A stretch of 39,962 bases of DNA from a virus (lineage: Duplodnaviria > Caudoviricetes): the IMG/VR virus record IMGVR_UViG_3300031965_000081, positions 1-39,962 of that record; one strand, written 5' to 3'. Made by a program: the position numbers and the translations under genes. Numbering within the stretch: the first letter of the stretch is position 1; each line of letters opens with the position of its first letter. Under the pieces are notes generated by a model. The model was not told the origin of the DNA. It did no database searches and was given only the letters and a program-made list of their open reading frames with translations. Positions 10,765 through 29,378 of the stretch are shown here, in pieces.

Positions 10765-11403
10765 TTAGTGCCTTTCAGCCACCAACTGTTGTAAGTATGG
10801 CGACAATTCCGCTTCTCGTTCCCTACCCCTGGGGTGATGAGCGTGGCATAAGGTGATGCCATTGTTAATATCATATCTTAATTCGGGGTAATCTTTCCAA
10901 TTAAGAATATGATGTGATTCCAATTTTCCGTTGCAATCACGGTTGTTAATTTTACATTTCCAGTTATCTATTTTCTTTACTGCTAACATCCATTCTCGGT
11001 ATCTTCCGTCAAGATGTTTCTTGTCGCTTTTAACTAATTCATCTCTGTTTGGAATCCACTTATGATGTTTTTCTTTAGCTAACTGACCTTTCTTAAACCA
11101 ACTCTTATTACCTCTTGCATGGGCTTCCTCGGAAATCTTCCAACTTTTACCTAAAGTATTCTTATTTCCTCGCATAAAGATTTTAGCGGCTTGCCCGATT
11201 TTGTCTTTATGCGCTTGAGATAAAGGTTTTCCTTTTTTGGAATTTATCATCTTTAATTTAGATTTTTCATTCATTGGGATTCCCTTATTCCAAGTTTGAT
11301 GCCCTTTCTTAAAGCCATTTTTCCCTGCCCAAGGACATTTAACACCCTTGTTCCAAGATGTTTTACCCTTATTCCACGGAATATAACCTTTTGCAAAAGA
11401 CAT
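10765..11403 (-). CDS. HNH homing endonuclease with NUMOD3-like WNKG repeats
   Basis: PWNKG/SWNKG/TWNKG repeats; LESHHILNWKDYPELRYDINNGITLCHAHH. Confidence 0.9.
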   Translation of the reverse strand: MSFAKGYIPWNKGKTSWNKGVKCPWAGKNGFKKGHQTWNKGIPMNEKSKLKMINSKKGKPLSQAHKDKIGQAAKIFMRGNKNTLGKSWKISEEAHARGNKSWFKKGQLAKEKHHKWIPNRDELVKSDKKHLDGRYREWMLAVKKIDNWKCKINNRDCNGKLESHHILNWKDYPELRYDINNGITLCHAHHPRGREREAELSPYLQQLVAERH

Positions 11404-14802: not shown

Positions 14803-16399
14803 TTTCTTTTTTTGGATATGAGAAATTAAAGAGTTTCTTTGGGTCAATGGCTGGAATTGTCTGGTCCGGCATCAATTCTGGGCTTTCTTTCATTGCTACA
14901 CTGTCCTCCATAAATATCTTAGCCCCACCTGTTCCGAATCTTGACATACCTGTACGCCAATAGCAAAGTGCATGTACGAAATGATCGTCATCAAATCTTT
15001 CCCATTTGCTCTCTGGCACACCCAAAGCGTTTTCTTCTGTGGTTCGGTAAATATGAGAAAAGTGTAAAGCTACATCATACCAATCATCTTCGCTTCCGTT
15101 TAATGGAATACGCTTGTCTCTAAATTCATCTATCACCATTTGTATCATGCGGTTACGGTCTACGGTTACATTACCTGTTTCATCATTCGCACCCCACCTT
15201 ACAAGTTGTAAAGTTTTTCGGTCTCTTTGATAGTGGCACAAGAATACTCTACCAGGGAATTGCTCTCGCATTTTTCTTGAACCGATTAAGTCTCCTCCTT
15301 GATCTATTACCATTATAGCGGTCGGGTATCGTTTCATCAATACTTTCAACGGCTCGTAATCTTTACAGTTTCCATTATAAAATAATCCTTGCCGATTTCC
15401 TATCACATACCAGATTGGAAGTCCGGTATCTACTCCAATAACTATTCTACCTTCTTGGTCGTTCACATCAGGAATACAATTTTTGAGAATGTCTTGAATG
15501 TTTACTTTGTCGCCACCTTGAGTGTAAGGAAGTCCTAGTACACGAGTATAAAAAGTATATTGGTCGCCTTTACTTGCGGTTATTATTTCTTTAGCTGTAA
15601 CCCATGAAGCAATAAATAATGGAATCCAAAAACCAGAATAGGGTCTAGTATCTGATATTTGATACTTAGATACCCACCTGCCTGTTTCTCGTTGCGTGTT
15701 GGTCAATTCTACGCCACACTTTTTGCAAATAAAGCAAGATTTCTCAAAATCTATGCTTTCTGGGTAATTCATGTATTCTTCGTGTCCGTTGTCGCAAGTG
15801 ATAAACCAATGCTTTTGGTCTGACTTTTGCCATGCTTGGTGAATGCCTACTTCGGGTAATGAAGGGTGAGAGAATAACCATTCCCATTTTACTTTACTGG
15901 CTTGAAGTCTTGATTTAAACTGCTTGATTATTTTCTGGTTACTGGTATCTATTTCATCGTGAATATTTAAGTCGGAGGAAAATGCAATAGCTTGTGATTC
16001 TTTCTCGGCTCCACTAAAAATACAATTAGACTTCCCTATTCTTTTCATGTAAAGATTGTCTGTCTTGTCTGTTGTACTCTTGAATGCTGGGTTAGCGTCT
16101 ATGATAGGATTTACTTTACCTTGCACAAACTTTTGCATAAGGTCTCCTGTGGGAAATGTGTAGATAGAACTTATTGCAAACATTTGGATTACTCTTAGAA
16201 CTTTTACAATGATAGATTCACTTGCTCCTACCTGCGCTCCTTTCATCCAGCATTGCATAGGAGATAAATCTGTAAAAGGTTCGGCTAGGAACTTTCTATC
16301 TCCATTAAAATACATTGGCTTGCCTGCGGATGTAACTATTCTGTTGGCTTTTACCCAATCAAGAATACTGACATCTGACAAAATAAATTCGTCTATCAT
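14780..16399 (-). CDS. terL: Terminase large subunit (lambda gpA-like family)
   Basis: KGAQVGASE Walker A-like, NIHDEID Walker B, FSHPS, Cys/His ribbon, IVIGVDTG and DDHFVHA nuclease motifs. Confidence 0.9.
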   Translation of the reverse strand: MIDEFILSDVSILDWVKANRIVTSAGKPMYFNGDRKFLAEPFTDLSPMQCWMKGAQVGASESIIVKVLRVIQMFAISSIYTFPTGDLMQKFVQGKVNPIIDANPAFKSTTDKTDNLYMKRIGKSNCIFSGAEKESQAIAFSSDLNIHDEIDTSNQKIIKQFKSRLQASKVKWEWLFSHPSLPEVGIHQAWQKSDQKHWFITCDNGHEEYMNYPESIDFEKSCFICKKCGVELTNTQRETGRWVSKYQISDTRPYSGFWIPLFIASWVTAKEIITASKGDQYTFYTRVLGLPYTQGGDKVNIQDILKNCIPDVNDQEGRIVIGVDTGLPIWYVIGNRQGLFYNGNCKDYEPLKVLMKRYPTAIMVIDQGGDLIGSRKMREQFPGRVFLCHYQRDRKTLQLVRWGANDETGNVTVDRNRMIQMVIDEFRDKRIPLNGSEDDWYDVALHFSHIYRTTEENALGVPESKWERFDDDHFVHALCYWRTGMSRFGTGGAKIFMEDSVAMKESPELMPDQTIPAIDPKKLFNFSYPKKENDWRDTE

Positions 16400-16911
16400 T
16401 TTATTTTTCTACCCCAAGTAGAAGTTGTTTTATGGCAAAGAAAACATAACACTCTACCATTATCTATTACGAAGCGTAATTCAGGATAATCAGAGAACCT
16501 TTTAATGTGGTCTACGTGTAAATTTTCTTTAGAACTACACCAAATACAAGTATAGTTATCTCTTTCTAAAACTGCCTTTTTCCATAAAAGATATTCTCTA
16601 GAATGTCTGATTCCTCGTTTGATTACAGTAATACCACCTTTCCAATTAGGGTTAGCAGAACCTGTGCGTAAAGGACATTTTATTCTACCTTCTTTAAATG
16701 CCCTTTTCATTGAGTCAGATTGCTTCTTTCTAGCCTCTAAAGACCGTTTTTTTCCTTTTTGAGCAATACTCATTTTTAACTTACTCTCCTCACTAAATTT
16801 TTTACCTTTATTCCAAACTTTTGTTCCCTTTTTACTTTTAGAAATCTTAGCTTTCGTTGCATCCGAGTGCGATATTCCTTTATTCCAAGCGACTCTTTTA
16901 TTACTGTTCAT
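16396..16911 (-). CDS. HNH homing endonuclease with NUMOD3-like repeats
   Basis: WNKG repeats, NPNWKGG, ERDNYTCIWC...LHVDHIKRFSDYPELRFVIDNGRVLCFLCH. Confidence 0.9.
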   Translation of the reverse strand: MNSNKRVAWNKGISHSDATKAKISKSKKGTKVWNKGKKFSEESKLKMSIAQKGKKRSLEARKKQSDSMKRAFKEGRIKCPLRTGSANPNWKGGITVIKRGIRHSREYLLWKKAVLERDNYTCIWCSSKENLHVDHIKRFSDYPELRFVIDNGRVLCFLCHKTTSTWGRKIK

Positions 16912-17362: not shown

Positions 17363-17593
17363 TTATTTGTACATTAAATCTTTAGGTGGTTCTCCATAGT
17401 ATTTTCGGAATATCTTTCCGGTTCTTCCTCCAGGTTGGGCGGTGTCTCTCTGGTGTTCTTTTAAATACTTCCGATTATCTATTCTCCCTGTTTTGTCTTT
17501 CTTGTAAGAGTTTTGGTGTTTGCACTCTACGCATATTTCTCTTATGCCGTCCGGTGTCTCCGTTATTTTTCTGAAGTTGTGGATGTGTTGCAT
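17363..17593 (-). CDS. Small hypothetical protein (HxH...CxxC)
   Basis: 76 aa; stop abuts TerS start. Confidence 0.65.
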   Translation of the reverse strand: MQHIHNFRKITETPDGIREICVECKHQNSYKKDKTGRIDNRKYLKEHQRDTAQPGGRTGKIFRKYYGEPPKDLMYK

Positions 17594-17832
17594 AAATAGC
17601 GTATATCTTCTTCTGGTATTATAACGTATTTTTCGCTGTCAATGTCTATTTCGTCTATATTGTAAGACTTGAAAAGAATAGTGTCGCCTACATTTACTTT
17701 TGTTACTTCGTCTCCGATTTCCAAGACTATTGCTTTTTCTGTTCGGGCTTCTTTTTCATCTACTTGTTCCATTGCTGAAAAATTAGACTTTGTGATTTCT
17801 ATGCGTATATTGTTTCCTAGTGGTTTTCCCAT
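17563..17832 (-). CDS. groES: Co-chaperonin GroES-like
   Basis: KPLGNNIRI, AIVLEIGDEV, VNVGDTILFKSY, YVIIPEEDI; adjacent to groEL. Confidence 0.85.
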   Translation of the reverse strand: MGKPLGNNIRIEITKSNFSAMEQVDEKEARTEKAIVLEIGDEVTKVNVGDTILFKSYNIDEIDIDSEKYVIIPEEDIRYLCNTSTTSEK

Positions 17833-17833
17833 A

Positions 17834-19372
17834 TTAGTTTTTCGGCTCTATGCGTTTTGCTACGCTTGAGCCAGTTGCTGTTAAGAGTGACCCTACTAAA
17901 TTACAGGCATTTTCTACGGCATAGCGAGTGCTTTTGACACTGTCTATTACATGGGGTTCAATCTTTAATTGTCCGCCTGCGTTTTCTTGTATTTGATTGT
18001 AAGGAGCTTGAAGAGCTTCCTTTAGTATTCCGTCTGGTAAATCTAAGGCAATCATTTTAAGAGCCACACCTCCGCCTTTGACTGAACCTTCCTCTATTGC
18101 TCCCTTGGTGGCGTAAATAGCGTCCTCTATTTTGTCTTTTAGGTAGGATAGGTCTTGTTGGGTGGGTGCGCCTACCTTGATTACAGCTGTTTTACCCTGA
18201 AGTCTAGCTATTCTGGCATCATAATGCTCTTTGACTTCTGAATTGTCTCTTTGGTTCTTTAATGTTTCAATTTTGGAATCTATGTCGCCTTTACCGCCTA
18301 TGAAAGTAGTTCTCTTTTGAGTGATTACTACCTTTTCACATCTGCCAAAGTGTTCTTCAATAAACTTTTTGCTTTCTTGTAAATAGTTAGGATCTAAAGG
18401 TTGTCCTTGTGGATTTCTCTGATTGCATACTGGAGCTTGATCGGGGAATATTCCTGTAGAGAGTCCGAATACTTTACCTTGTGTTACAAGAGCTATGTCT
18501 TCTATGAACTCTTGCTTCTTAACTGTGGGGAATTTGACTGCAAAGATTTCCATTACGTTCTTGCCTTCGTTGTATTTAGCCATTTTGTTTCGGGCGATAG
18601 TTGAGAGAGTGTTACCAGCTAGTCCATCACAAACCAAAAGCACTTCGGTAATTCCATTGTCGGCTAGGTTCTGAACCACAGGGAGAATGGTTTTTATATT
18701 ATCTACTTTAGAATCCACGAGGAGGACGTAAGGTTCGTTCAAGACTGCTTCGCCTCGTTCGTTATTCATCATAAACTCTGCAACATACCCTTCGTCTATC
18801 TCTAATCCAGGGGCATATTCTACCCTAACACCATTTATTTCACTTTCTTGTACGTCTATTTTGCCTTCTTTGCCTACTTTTTCAGTAGCTTCGGCTATTA
18901 AATATCCGATTTCTTCGCTTTGAGCCGAGATAGTGGCTACTTTTTTAATATCTTCAGGAGTTTTTACTGGTTGGGCGGAAGATTTTAGCTCTCCGAGAAC
19001 AGTTTTAGCATGTTCTGCTATCTCTTCTTGCTTGGCTAGAGGGTGTTTATCTGACTTTCTGCCCTCTTTCCAAATAGACTGGACCAGGGTTATGAAGGTT
19101 GTAGAGGCGTCTCCGGCATACATATTCGTCCTCATAGCGGTTTGTTTTACTGCGTCTACTATAGCTTGTTCGGTTTCATCTTCTGTAAAAATCTGACGAG
19201 CTACGGTTACGCCGTCATTGGTAACGAGCGGAATATTATATTGATTAGTGTAAAAGAAATTCCGTCCACTTGGACCTAAAGTCTTTTTAACAGGGTTGGC
19301 TATAATATCTATCCCCCTGTCTACAACTTCTAAAAACTTCTCATCTTCTAATATAATCCTGTCTTGGTGCAT
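17834..19372 (-). CDS. groEL: Chaperonin GroEL-like
   Basis: KTLGPSGRN, VTNDGVTVAR, AGDASTT, VATISA, RIARL, AVIKVGA, IEDAIYATKGAIEEG, GGGVAL. Confidence 0.95.
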   Translation of the reverse strand: MHQDRIILEDEKFLEVVDRGIDIIANPVKKTLGPSGRNFFYTNQYNIPLVTNDGVTVARQIFTEDETEQAIVDAVKQTAMRTNMYAGDASTTFITLVQSIWKEGRKSDKHPLAKQEEIAEHAKTVLGELKSSAQPVKTPEDIKKVATISAQSEEIGYLIAEATEKVGKEGKIDVQESEINGVRVEYAPGLEIDEGYVAEFMMNNERGEAVLNEPYVLLVDSKVDNIKTILPVVQNLADNGITEVLLVCDGLAGNTLSTIARNKMAKYNEGKNVMEIFAVKFPTVKKQEFIEDIALVTQGKVFGLSTGIFPDQAPVCNQRNPQGQPLDPNYLQESKKFIEEHFGRCEKVVITQKRTTFIGGKGDIDSKIETLKNQRDNSEVKEHYDARIARLQGKTAVIKVGAPTQQDLSYLKDKIEDAIYATKGAIEEGSVKGGGVALKMIALDLPDGILKEALQAPYNQIQENAGGQLKIEPHVIDSVKSTRYAVENACNLVGSLLTATGSSVAKRIEPKN

Positions 19373-26420: not shown

Positions 26421-26475
26421 TATATTCTATGTGTTAGCGTTTGTCAAGCGTATTTATAAACCACTATGTGGATAA
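26419..26475 (-). promoter_or_regulatory. Promoter TTGACA-17-TATATT with upstream perfect DnaA box
   Basis: TTGACA at 26447-26442, TATATT at 26424-26419; TTATCCACA at 26475-26467. Confidence 0.55.
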
Positions 26476-26778
26476 CTCATTTCGTTTTTTTGAATCATGG
26501 CAATACTCGCATGAATACTTTGATGTCCACAGAAGATCACATACGGGACAATGAAGTGTAGTGTCCACTGCTCGCTTCTTGTATTCACTCTTCGGCTTGA
26601 GCTTTGGATTTTTACTTCCGGTTTTGCCTATACCTGTATATCTCTGCCAGTGATAAACAACCGATGAATGGTCTATACCGAATATTTTAGCTATTTCAGG
26701 GAAAGACATACCCTCCTTGCGGAATTGTATCATTTTCTTTATCGCCAGTTTTGATTGTGTTCGTTGTCCGTGTTTCAT
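26464..26778 (-). CDS. HTH protein with C-terminal CxxC...CxxC
   Basis: GMSFPEIAKIFGIDHSSVVYHW HTH; start MKHGQR by ATGA overlap. Confidence 0.7.
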   Translation of the reverse strand: MKHGQRTQSKLAIKKMIQFRKEGMSFPEIAKIFGIDHSSVVYHWQRYTGIGKTGSKNPKLKPKSEYKKRAVDTTLHCPVCDLLWTSKYSCEYCHDSKKRNELST

Positions 26779-27029
26779 ATTCTCAAAGAAAACCACCAAG
26801 TGCTTGAGAAGTTCTTCGCATCCTTGCAATATGACAAAAACCAATAAAGGTCTTGGGTTGATAGATGGCTCATTTTAATTGCGTAGTATTTTGCTCCTAA
26901 AGGTTTGTATTTGTTTTTGATCCGGTCGCTGTCTAGGATTTCAGTAAACTGTTTTATCAAATCTGCTCTTTCAGATTTTATTTCAGTTTTTTCTTTTTTG
27001 TAGTTTTTTAGAAGTTCAGAGAGTTTCAT
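26775..27029 (-). CDS. Hypothetical helical protein coupled to RNase H
   Basis: Start MKLSELL at 27029 by ATGA overlap with RNase H stop. Confidence 0.65.
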   Translation of the reverse strand: MKLSELLKNYKKEKTEIKSERADLIKQFTEILDSDRIKNKYKPLGAKYYAIKMSHLSTQDLYWFLSYCKDAKNFSSTWWFSLRI

Positions 27030-27478
27030 AGATTTTTCCATAGCATTTGTTTTGTTTCTGTTAAATATTCTCCATTGAATTCTTCTTGGGTTATGCTCGC
27101 TTCCCATTTTGTTTCATCTTTTTCATTGAGCAGTCCAGCGAGGTTAAAATTTCTTCCCTCCCACATAAGATTTATATTTTTCCCTTTTAAGAGAGTTTTG
27201 CACTTCTGCAGGATTTCATATAAGTCGGGTCTGGCTTTTGATTTTCCTTTGTTTGCCCAGGTTAAGCAACACATTGAATCGGTGGAAACAGTGTCGCCTT
27301 CTTTCGCCAGATCTAGTGCTTTTAGAATTCCAAGAATTTCTCCCTCGTTATTCGTGAAACCTTTTTTTCTGATTACTTCACGGCTTATCAATGTACCGTT
27401 TTCATCTGTTATTGTATATCCTCCTCCATATTCGCTTGGATTAGATATTATATTAAAACCATCAGTATAATACTTCAT
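27026..27478 (-). CDS. Ribonuclease HI-like protein
   Basis: YYTDG (D6), TNNEGE (E47), STDS (D67), LMWEGR..NLAG; fourth acidic residue appears replaced. Confidence 0.8.
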   Translation of the reverse strand: MKYYTDGFNIISNPSEYGGGYTITDENGTLISREVIRKKGFTNNEGEILGILKALDLAKEGDTVSTDSMCCLTWANKGKSKARPDLYEILQKCKTLLKGKNINLMWEGRNFNLAGLLNEKDETKWEASITQEEFNGEYLTETKQMLWKNL

Positions 27479-27484
27479 ATTTTT

Positions 27485-27800
27485 ATAACGCCCGACTTAC
27501 CAAAAAAAGAGAGGCATTGCTAATAATTTGACAGACAAGGATTGTATACCTTGAGTAGCTACCACTAATATAGTATCGTGCCTTGAGTGAATGTGATACT
27601 GTATCCTTTTTGCTCTCCGATATACCGAACTTGATTCGGCATTCGTTGGATGGCTGGGTGGAAGTCGGACACCATTTATCCCAGCTTTCGCACGAATGTC
27701 TAATCAAATCCTTTATGTTTCAGATTGAGGACTCAACTCAATCATCCCATTAGGAACTGTTTTACTGCCAAGTCCCTACACGCAGGTTTCTTGTCTTTTG
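27485..27800 (-). ncRNA. Large multi-stem pseudoknotted non-coding RNA upstream of RNase H
   Basis: At least six nested stems plus a 14-bp loop-to-3'-end pseudoknot (see finding). Confidence 0.65.
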
Positions 27801-27809
27801 TAAAAACAC

Positions 27810-27833
27810 AAAAAAACGCCCGAAAAGGCGTTT
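27810..27833 (-). terminator. Intrinsic terminator/attenuator
   Basis: AAACGCC-TTTTCG-GGCGTTT followed by a U tract. Confidence 0.7.
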
Positions 27834-27925
27834 ACTTAAATACTCTGTCCGCAACCGCAAGTGATTGACCACCAGCGATGCGGGTGCGGAAACAATATTC
27901 AAATATCTTACTGGTGATCATTCAC
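27834..27925 (-). promoter_or_regulatory. Pseudoknot leader: 5' segment complementary to loop of long hairpin
   Basis: GTGAATGATCACCAG (27925-27911) pairs with CTGGTGGTCAATCAC (27875-27861) in the loop of hairpin 27904-27834. Confidence 0.65.
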
Positions 27926-27927
27926 CT

Positions 27928-27968
27928 ATTATATCACACTCTGATCCTCGTCAAAGGAGTTTTCCACA
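27928..27968 (-). promoter_or_regulatory. Extended -10 promoter (TTGACG-15-TATAAT, with TG extension) and adjacent DnaA-box-like TTTTCCACA
   Basis: TGTGATATAAT 27938-27928; TTGACG 27954-27949; TTWTNCACA match at 27960-27968. Confidence 0.6.
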
Positions 27969-28004
27969 CATGTTCATTATTTTCTATTAAGCCATGGAAA
28001 CTAT

Positions 28005-28459: not shown

Positions 28460-28864
28460 TTAACAGACCTCATATCCCGTCTTTTTTAGAGCCACGAGAG
28501 CATTCCAATCTTTAATTGGTACGGTTTTTCTTTCCGTTCTCCGGAGGAAGATGATTTCATGTTCTGCGGTTTCTGGATTTGGACGTACATCTACGCCACA
28601 TCCGATGATTGCACAAATTGATTCGTACTCTACTTTGTCTTCTCTGTTTTGATAAAACTGGATAATGTGCGGTACGAAACCGAGACGATGATGCTCAATG
28701 AGAACATCTACATCTACGTCTTTAGTGAAAAAACCGTCCCTTCTTGACCCGAAAAGGACTACTGTGTCTGTGTGTGAGGGTCTGCCATGTTTGGCACACT
28801 CTTCACAAAATGCGATTCTGGTAATGAACATGGCATATAGTTTTGGTTCTTCTACATTATACAA
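28460..28864 (-). CDS. Hypothetical protein (CxxC, CxxxxC)
   Basis: 134 aa overlapping HNH stop. Confidence 0.65.
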   Translation of the reverse strand: MYNVEEPKLYAMFITRIAFCEECAKHGRPSHTDTVVLFGSRRDGFFTKDVDVDVLIEHHRLGFVPHIIQFYQNREDKVEYESICAIIGCGVDVRPNPETAEHEIIFLRRTERKTVPIKDWNALVALKKTGYEVC

Positions 28865-29378
28865 CTTTATTAGGTTTTCTCCTAAATTTTCTTCTATTTT
28901 TCATCTGTTGAGACCAAGTAGCCCAGCGACAATTTTCTTTACAATAATGACCGTTCACATCAACTCTATCTATTGTTGTGTTTTTCCAACCAAATTTTTT
29001 TAAATGTTTCAAAAAACTTTTACACATATCTTCCTTAAAATCTTGATAGCCATCCCAAAGACATTTAATTCCTCTACCACCATAATACTCGTAACGATTA
29101 TGACTTGGATATTTACATCTTCCCCTTAAACTAAGCCACACCTTAAATAAACCATCATCTTTTGTATTTTTATATTTTTCAAATTTTTCATATCCTCCAG
29201 TTTCTTTCCATCGTTGTGATATTTTTTTGCGATATTCAGGATTTTTTTTATATTTTTTGTTATATTCAGGATTTTTTTTATACCAAAGTCTATTGTACTC
29301 ATTTTTACAATCCCTACAAAAATAATTATGGTATGGTAAACGTTCTTTAATTTTACATTTTCCACAAACCTTATTCAT
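28857..29378 (-). CDS. HNH-type endonuclease (YGGRGI family)
   Basis: RCKYP...YYGGRGIKC.W...F..DM...TIDRVDVNGHYCKENCRWAT. Confidence 0.85.
   Translation of the reverse strand: MNKVCGKCKIKERLPYHNYFCRDCKNEYNRLWYKKNPEYNKKYKKNPEYRKKISQRWKETGGYEKFEKYKNTKDDGLFKVWLSLRGRCKYPSHNRYEYYGGRGIKCLWDGYQDFKEDMCKSFLKHLKKFGWKNTTIDRVDVNGHYCKENCRWATWSQQMKNRRKFRRKPNKVV

Follow-up and report, generated by a model that had tools for sequence, protein, structure and literature searches.

A conserved RNA with three predicted pseudoknots as a candidate origin in a phage genome with no recognisable replication genes

Introduction

How does a phage begin to copy its DNA when none of its genes is recognisable as a replication gene? 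This question is raised by IMGVR_UViG_3300031965_000081, which we analysed over its full 39,962 nt (the window). A terminal repeat of 127 nt identified the window as a complete circular phage genome; the phage genes lie on its minus strand. Among its 56 ORFs, virion, lysis, recombination, GroEL/ES and nuclease genes were recognised by Pfam and PHROG scans. Within the sensitivity of the profiles, no polymerase, primase, helicase or initiator was found among these ORFs, which bears out an observation of an earlier note on this DNA. That note had also proposed that a large folded RNA upstream of an RNase H gene is a replication primer processed by the phage's own RNase H, or else a new large noncoding RNA class. 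The host is likely a member of the ultra-small Patescibacteria, an assignment taken solely from the taxa (Minisyncoccota) of the Atlas clusters of an 84-aa protein encoded beside the RNA. The genome also encodes GroES and GroEL (17563-19372), adjoining the terminase, and three HNH endonucleases (10765-11403, 16396-16911 and 28857-29378), one of which overlaps the longest start of the capsid ORF while another lies between the terminase subunits.

Initiation from RNA has precedents. The ColE1 origin (PMC11012335) involves the RNA II pre-primer, RNA I, and host RNase H and Pol I. ARRPOF, from a Fusobacterium plasmid, is described in PMC5737381 and PMC12990946 with helices P1-P8 and four pseudoknots. 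At the T4 R-loop origins (PMC3016281), the primer for leading-strand synthesis is a phage transcript that has annealed to the origin.

Our comparative analysis shows that the element is real and structurally conserved, likely an RNA with three predicted pseudoknots outside any Rfam family, and that about two dozen other viruses, likely also parasites of Patescibacteria, carry the same folded element. We assign a probability of about 0.55 to the reading that it is an RNA-dependent origin that replaces an initiator protein and works like ColE1 or ARRPOF while belonging to neither. If true, this would explain how many 35-45 kb phages without recognisable replication genes start copying, and would add a modular phage replicon to the RNA-primed origins of plasmids. 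With the RNA and its cognate RNase H in one locus, the question of what ARRPOF-like RNAs do becomes testable, and the element is a covariation-defined RNA of a size tractable by cryo-EM. Even without a replication role, it would be a multi-pseudoknot RNA class absent from Rfam.

Results

Fold and conservation of the RNA

Folding of the 321-nt domain (27800-27480, minus strand, as are all parts of the element described below) gave z = -3.5, and none of 100 shuffled sequences folded as well. All of the stems listed in the earlier note were found in this phage at the positions given there. Neither the stem proposed to close the domain (27796-27790/27539-27533) nor the variable-region hairpin (27723..27743) was seen in homologues by eye. 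The conserved core (27628..27710) consists of P3 (27710-27693/27645-27628), which carries a conserved A.G mismatch; a 7-nt joiner between P3 and P4 (27692-27686); P4 (27685-27680/27658-27653), followed by an A-rich bulge; P5 (27674-27672/27661-27659); the hairpin loop (27671-27662); and the 5′ strand of P6 (27652-27646). Next come a variable insertion domain (27510..27627), the core-to-tail distance being 60-206 nt across homologues, and a 3′ tail (27489..27509). The placement of the tail 6 nt upstream of the RNase H ATG was confirmed.

Homologues were collected by three pattern scans of viral contigs followed by nhmmer and filtering by eye, which yielded 21 distinct copies including that of this phage. 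Two of the 41 loci from the first scan were homologous and near-identical to each other. The second scan gave the same two plus L136 among 58 loci, with L147, L174 and L173 rejected by context. The third gave 119 loci from 56 of the 64 parts of the collection; 25 were inspected, this phage's own record among them, and exclusion of L224 and L319, which had no visible tail, and of the duplicates L264 and L284 left 21. In the core alignment of these copies 92.4% of 567 cells pair, as against 67.6% after shuffling, a comparison that ignores relatedness (some copies are close pairs); slid-register controls paired at 39-48%. Both sides change in 20 of the 27 core pairs, and P5, under a rule-based split, is paired in all 21 homologues. 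Because the third pattern fixed both the joiner and most of P4, their invariance is not evidence.

Model R1 scored the core at 83 bits on the minus strand of this phage versus 30.6 on the plus strand. R1 also found four loci that lay outside the model and had no pattern match, L075 (with its duplicate L076) and L468-L470, of which L469 and L470 are near-identical. By eye, these hold-outs keep two of the pseudoknots described below (PK1 and PK2) with new letters, P4 varies, and P6 is retained partly or fully. Run over 101 genomes from a single bacterial phylum, R1 returned one candidate match of 28.9 bits, and a further small set gave none (0/3). A 74-aa ORF with a TTG start overlaps the element at 27483-27707; the compensatory changes and variable inserts argue against its being coding.

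The element was then compared with existing collections. A cmscan of this genome against Rfam 15, which includes ARRPOF, gave no matches at gathering thresholds, and only five at E ≤ 10, all far below threshold. INPHARED phages contained no real match, blastn of 27470-28000 against the 72,556 plasmids of PLSDB returned one 23-nt chance match only, and a sequencing-run look-up listed no carrier of the RNA. Our literature searches showed no published description of the element; candidate viral RNA catalogues beyond Rfam could contain it. Covariation across the 21 homologues and the hold-outs supports the suggestion of a new large noncoding RNA class.

Three predicted pseudoknots

The stem 27778-27771/27758-27751, previously described as a plain hairpin, is present but is predicted to be the second stem of an H-type pseudoknot, PK1 (27751..27785), that had been missed earlier. 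Stem 1 is 27785-27782/27768-27765, and an A-rich linker (27764-27759) lies between the stem strands. In a rule-based search PK1 outscored 19 or more of 20 shuffles for 13 of the 21 homologues, in one of them at the wrong site; PK1 was weak in two and nothing was found in six.

The second pseudoknot, PK2, joins the hairpin loop in fixed register to the 3′ tail 60-206 nt downstream. A loop-tail pseudoknot had been noted in this phage with 14 bp; it exists, but spans at most 10 bp (27671-27662 with 27498-27489). The 14-bp version was rejected, as the extra 5′ bases form P5; they contribute just 0.7 kcal/mol. Five PK2 pairs occur in 21/21 copies by construction, since the placement rule required them; the sixth occurs in 19/21. 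Out of six possible Watson-Crick pairs, each loop formed a mean of 5.9 with its own tail versus 2.6 with tails of mismatched copies. In 20/21 copies the placement outscored 95 or more of 100 shuffles. This placement rule replaced an earlier one whose sites were judged wrong in L332, L230 and L236.

In the third pseudoknot, P6, the 3′ strand of the internal loop is paired to the tail segment just upstream of the PK2 partner. Two P6 positions pair in 21/21 copies with four pair types each; where the last one changes, P6 persists and P3 loses its top. Overall, pairing in P6 is weaker (4.6 pairs with its own tail versus 3.4 in cross-comparisons), and P6 is degenerate in this phage.

The types of base pair bear on the form in which the element would act. 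It might work at the origin as single-stranded DNA, as a primosome-assembly or lagging-strand signal, with transcription merely opening the duplex, and motifs of this kind may function as single-stranded DNA according to Weinberg 2017. PK2 and P5 have no G-T pairs, although the rule-based placement selected for Watson-Crick pairs, and the slot and depletion data presented below would be accounted for equally. However, G-U is the commonest pair at one P3 position (13/21) and is frequent at others, and a promoter-like site, identified by eye, precedes most copies. A-rich linkers are typical of RNA pseudoknots, and the element has such linkers. We regard action as single-stranded DNA as decidedly unlikely.

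The upstream promoter and leader cassette

The earlier note had described a DnaA-box-like site and an extended -10 promoter ahead of the RNA. Both are present on the minus strand: a 9-mer with an 8/9 match to the DnaA-box consensus (27960..27968), and a putative sigma-70 promoter (27928..27954) with a -35-like hexamer and a perfect extended -10, but the spacer is 15 nt. A consensus scan did not call this promoter because it requires a spacer of 16-18 nt. In 12 of 21 homologues a box-like 8-mer occurs no more than 480 nt upstream, and DnaA-box-like sites also precede the conventional initiators in genomes G045 and G048. On the plus strand, one promoter-like site (27442-27471) was found, compared with 2.8 expected by chance.

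The promoter is followed by a leader (27833..27920) whose 5′ end (27920-27911) is complementary to the loop (27875-27866) of a long hairpin at 27905-27833. An intrinsic terminator (27804..27833) between leader and RNA was confirmed, the scan placing it at 27833-27814. By eye, the same complementarity between 5′ end and loop recurs with different letters in G001, G003 and G049, and before the initiator of G010. Judged from its sequence, the leader is likely an attenuator resembling the seqA/CI arrangement of phage P4, for which PMC4825925 describes seqA/CI/seqC attenuation. The likeness concerns the leader only: in both, the loop of a downstream hairpin, placed before a terminator, is complementary to the 5′ end of the leader, and a likely replication function follows. 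The differences here are the lack of an Rfam match and of a demonstrated processed antisense RNA. A similar cassette elsewhere in this genome (26400-26475) comprises a perfect DnaA box, then a promoter-like site and a structured-looking leader.

A position behind a promoter and an attenuator-like leader would also suit a cis-acting mRNA leader, one acting on the early gene that follows by stabilising or processing its message or by promoting its translation, perhaps in an IRES-like or self-cleaving manner. In many copies a start codon lies between a few and about 40 nt beyond the end of the tail (this phage, G026, G027, G028, G034, G035, G036, G039 and L075). However, a new promoter or DnaA box, seen by eye, follows the element in G001, G003, G025, G031, G032 and G041, the next called ORF is on the opposite strand in G029 and G042, and the downstream genes are mutually unrelated. 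The depletion of initiators described below would be left unexplained as well, and we consider an mRNA leader unlikely.

RNase H, the 84-aa protein and the HTH protein

The gene following the RNA (27026..27478, minus strand) encodes a 150-aa RNase HI-like protein, as judged by profile, fold and conserved carboxylates. Its fold model has a pLDDT of 89.7 and its top PDB matches are RNase HI. Archaeal and actinobacterial RNases HI (3aly, 3hst and 3u3g) share the predicted fold (Foldseek E ~1e-6) and three carboxylates at about 23% identity, whereas the fourth carboxylate is not evident in the phage protein. Among 95 relatives D67 is invariant, and D6 and E47 occur in at least 90%; the fourth position appears to be replaced.

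RNase H (phrog_531) was found in 3/20 RNA genomes and in 0/26 controls selected by capsid (p=0.075; p=0.17 without this phage). All three genes adjoin the RNA, none of them more than about 160 nt away from the core motif or tail, and two are divergent from this phage's gene. The enrichment is not significant. The hold-out L075/L076 likewise has the RNA with an RNase H. Obligatory coupling was rejected, and with it processing by the phage's own RNase H as a general rule, as 17 of the 20 RNA genomes, including the complete G003, have no RNase H match. Conversely, when R1 was run over 85 RNase H-family loci besides this phage, only L075/L076 carried the RNA, so that most such loci carry other upstream sequences. 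In a rough test, the 370 nt upstream of RNase H genes had z ≤ -3 in 14/42 cases versus 3/41 inside the gene.

The next gene (26775..27029, minus strand) encodes an 84-aa protein, a small helical bundle. Its family, large and unnamed, comprises 788 clusters at E ≤ 0.001 and occurs in Minisyncoccota as well as in viruses of these hosts. Members lie within 1.1 kb of the RNA in 4 of 20 RNA genomes. No Pfam family occurred in more than 3 of 141 members, and the best structural match was a designed protein (VIA Z 7.0, rmsd 9.2), with none standing out. Atlas leads below 0.8 were RepB_C, Bac_RepA_C and gp59_N. There was no significant match to any initiator domain and no profile match to two initiators, and a weak test for a form fused to a winged-helix initiator found none. 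In G020 (L211:13462-13780) a gene of this family is split over two frames just after RNase H. Small proteins without a PHROG match, mostly beside the RNA, occur at L357:4865-5107, L347:13605-13808, L193:16050-16298, L359:9123-9575 and L369:13064-13495, and are possible analogues of the 84-aa protein. An HTH protein (26464..26778, minus strand), whose membership of the module is putative, ends at a perfect DnaA box (26467-26475).

The RNA occupies the slot of an initiator gene

The expectation that the RNA and Rep genes exclude each other was examined with phrog_270, as the Pfam domains HTH_36 and DnaB_C proved too insensitive: they were found in 0/16 and 1/16 near-complete control phages, so their absence is not distinctive. 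The N-terminal, DNA-binding half of phrog_270 was found in 0/20 RNA genomes versus 7/26 controls (p=0.014), in a test that ignores relatedness and compares unmatched sets, the controls having been chosen by two capsid families and the RNA genomes by motif. Among genomes at least 90% complete the figures are 0/11 versus 5/16 (p=0.06). Inspection of 10 controls by eye and with PHROG revealed full-length initiators in 6, and neither this RNA nor a recognised initiator in 4. Eight initiators, six from controls and two from RNase H-family genomes, had no full-length relative in RNA genomes.

Gene order gives a closer comparison. In this phage NinG is followed by the box, promoter and leader, the RNA, RNase H, the 84-aa gene and recombination genes. 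In G045, whose capsid is 77% identical and whose gene order matches, NinG is followed by the box, promoter and leader, an initiator, a partner gene and recombination genes; the initiator lies behind a DnaA box, an extended -10 promoter and a hairpin leader. G046 and two fragments have capsids as close as that of G045 or closer, and G046 has neither RNA nor initiator. A promoter and leader cassette also precedes the initiators of G010 and G014.

Partial initiators were found as well. RNA-bearing G001 encodes an initiator's C-terminal half alone (L195:12731-13189; phrog_270 positions 168-254, E 5e-21), and stand-alone C-terminal halves lacking the DNA-binding domain also occur at L492:10433-10906 (G050) and L065:7055-7360. 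Control G050 combines its half with another promoter-terminator noncoding stretch, and control G049 has a member of the 84-aa family and a second RNA motif in the gap where G003 carries this RNA. Initiators occur in G010 and G014, and a primase-helicase in G019, all three being RNase H-family genomes that lack this RNA; G014 has RNase H, the second RNA motif and an initiator together.

Support for the replication role proposed earlier is indirect and comparative, coming from the shared slot, the depletion of initiator DNA-binding halves and the stand-alone C-terminal domains. GC skew shows no switch at the RNA locus and is uninformative for the origin. The GC-rich RNA-bearing genomes G028, G029, G042 and G043 encode Replic_Relax and/or CHC2-finger proteins that could replicate them. 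All four have a CHC2-finger protein, three with Replic_Relax and an integrase module, and carry the RNA near lysis genes; they may be chimeric or integrative.

Genomic distribution

The position of the RNA varies among genomes (early cluster, terminase-portal gap, after lysis genes), with varied neighbours. Such patchiness would fit a phage noncoding RNA that acts in trans as a protein scaffold, a decoy or an anti-defence RNA, or else a mobile ribozyme with no part in replication. This alternative seems quite unlikely to us, as there is one pattern match per genome in 20/20 records searched, no dedicated 3′ terminator after the tail in this genome's locus, and no associated RT or homing partner seen, and it would leave initiator depletion and RNase H adjacency unexplained. 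Copies between terminase and portal or just before portal (G001, G003, G038, G041 and G076-G078) bring to mind a packaging RNA like the pRNA of phi29. However, R1 found the RNA absent from 16/16 near-complete phages chosen for related capsids, in this phage its neighbours are early genes and the terminase is 10 kb away, and G049 has a different RNA in the same gap; a packaging role is highly improbable.

Discussion

The reading of the element as an RNA-dependent origin is favoured by the conserved fold, the slot equivalence with G045, the depletion of initiator DNA-binding halves and the adjacency of RNase H. It is opposed by the 4/10 controls with neither RNA nor initiator, the Replic_Relax or CHC2 proteins in four records and the lack of a GC-skew switch. 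In such an origin, host RNA polymerase would transcribe the element when the upstream leader permits read-through, and the folded RNA would stay hybridised to the template as a persistent R-loop. An RNase HI, the phage's where present and otherwise likely the host's, would trim the RNA to a primer, which a host polymerase would extend. Loading of the host helicase would be helped by a small helical protein that stands alone, possibly the 84-aa protein here. In the most speculative step, the core loop and P6 strand would clamp the displaced non-template strand and, with the nascent tail still on the template, lock the R-loop; the sole basis of this idea is that the non-template strand has the same sequence as the 3′ tail of the RNA.

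The proposed origin would resemble ColE1 in that it needs no initiator protein and has a promoter upstream from which a long folded transcript is made; RNase H is implicated, and control is likely exerted through RNA folding upstream. No element-encoded initiator was found in this genome, within profile sensitivity. By contrast, ColE1 is a plasmid, whereas the element belongs to a phage, has a different, predicted triple-pseudoknot fold and is sometimes accompanied by an element-encoded RNase H. PLSDB (27470-28000) and Rfam revealed no similarity to RNA II or RNA I, and neither a ColE1-like G-tract nor a significant antisense promoter was found in this phage's locus. With ARRPOF the element would share a size of about 250-350 nt, several pseudoknots and a link to Rep-independent replication of a mobile element; it differs in having no Rfam match even at E ≤ 10 and in its long core hairpin with a docking 3′ tail. 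T4 encodes its own replisome, whereas this phage has none recognisable and its RNA has a conserved elaborate fold.

A broader proposal is more tentative: phages of Patescibacteria may repeatedly have swapped the DNA-binding half of an initiator for interchangeable large structured RNAs of at least two classes, while retaining just a small domain for helicase recruitment and, in some cases, an RNase H of their own; this RNA would have pseudoknot arms that could clamp the displaced strand.

Other noncoding layouts were observed during the scans. A second RNA class with a covarying pseudoknot (L002:4630-4720, L017:9680-9760, L061, L062, L064 and L480, the last from G049; by eye also L021, L022 and L071) lies upstream of RNase H genes, and in G049 in the terminase-portal gap behind a leader like that of G003. 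A third shared noncoding family upstream of RNase H (L001, L005, L017, L043, L044, L045, L046, L049, L050, L054 and L061; blastn E down to 1e-62) has a recurrent short hairpin near its 3′ end. Split G-tracts, absent from this phage's RNA, occur 40-150 nt before the RNase H start in L008, L012, L042, L053 and L063, and reversed in L009 and L015; we take them to resemble mitochondrial CSB II. In G047 (L476:8450-9010), a gap with z -6.0 contains, downstream of a DnaA box and a promoter, tRNA-like ends that surround an insert of about 90 nt. Finally, G003 encodes a 2H-phosphoesterase with a weak match to the anti-CBASS protein Acb1 (L192:3164-3769), and G044 a protein matching the Beta-lactamase2 family (L352:13255-14139).
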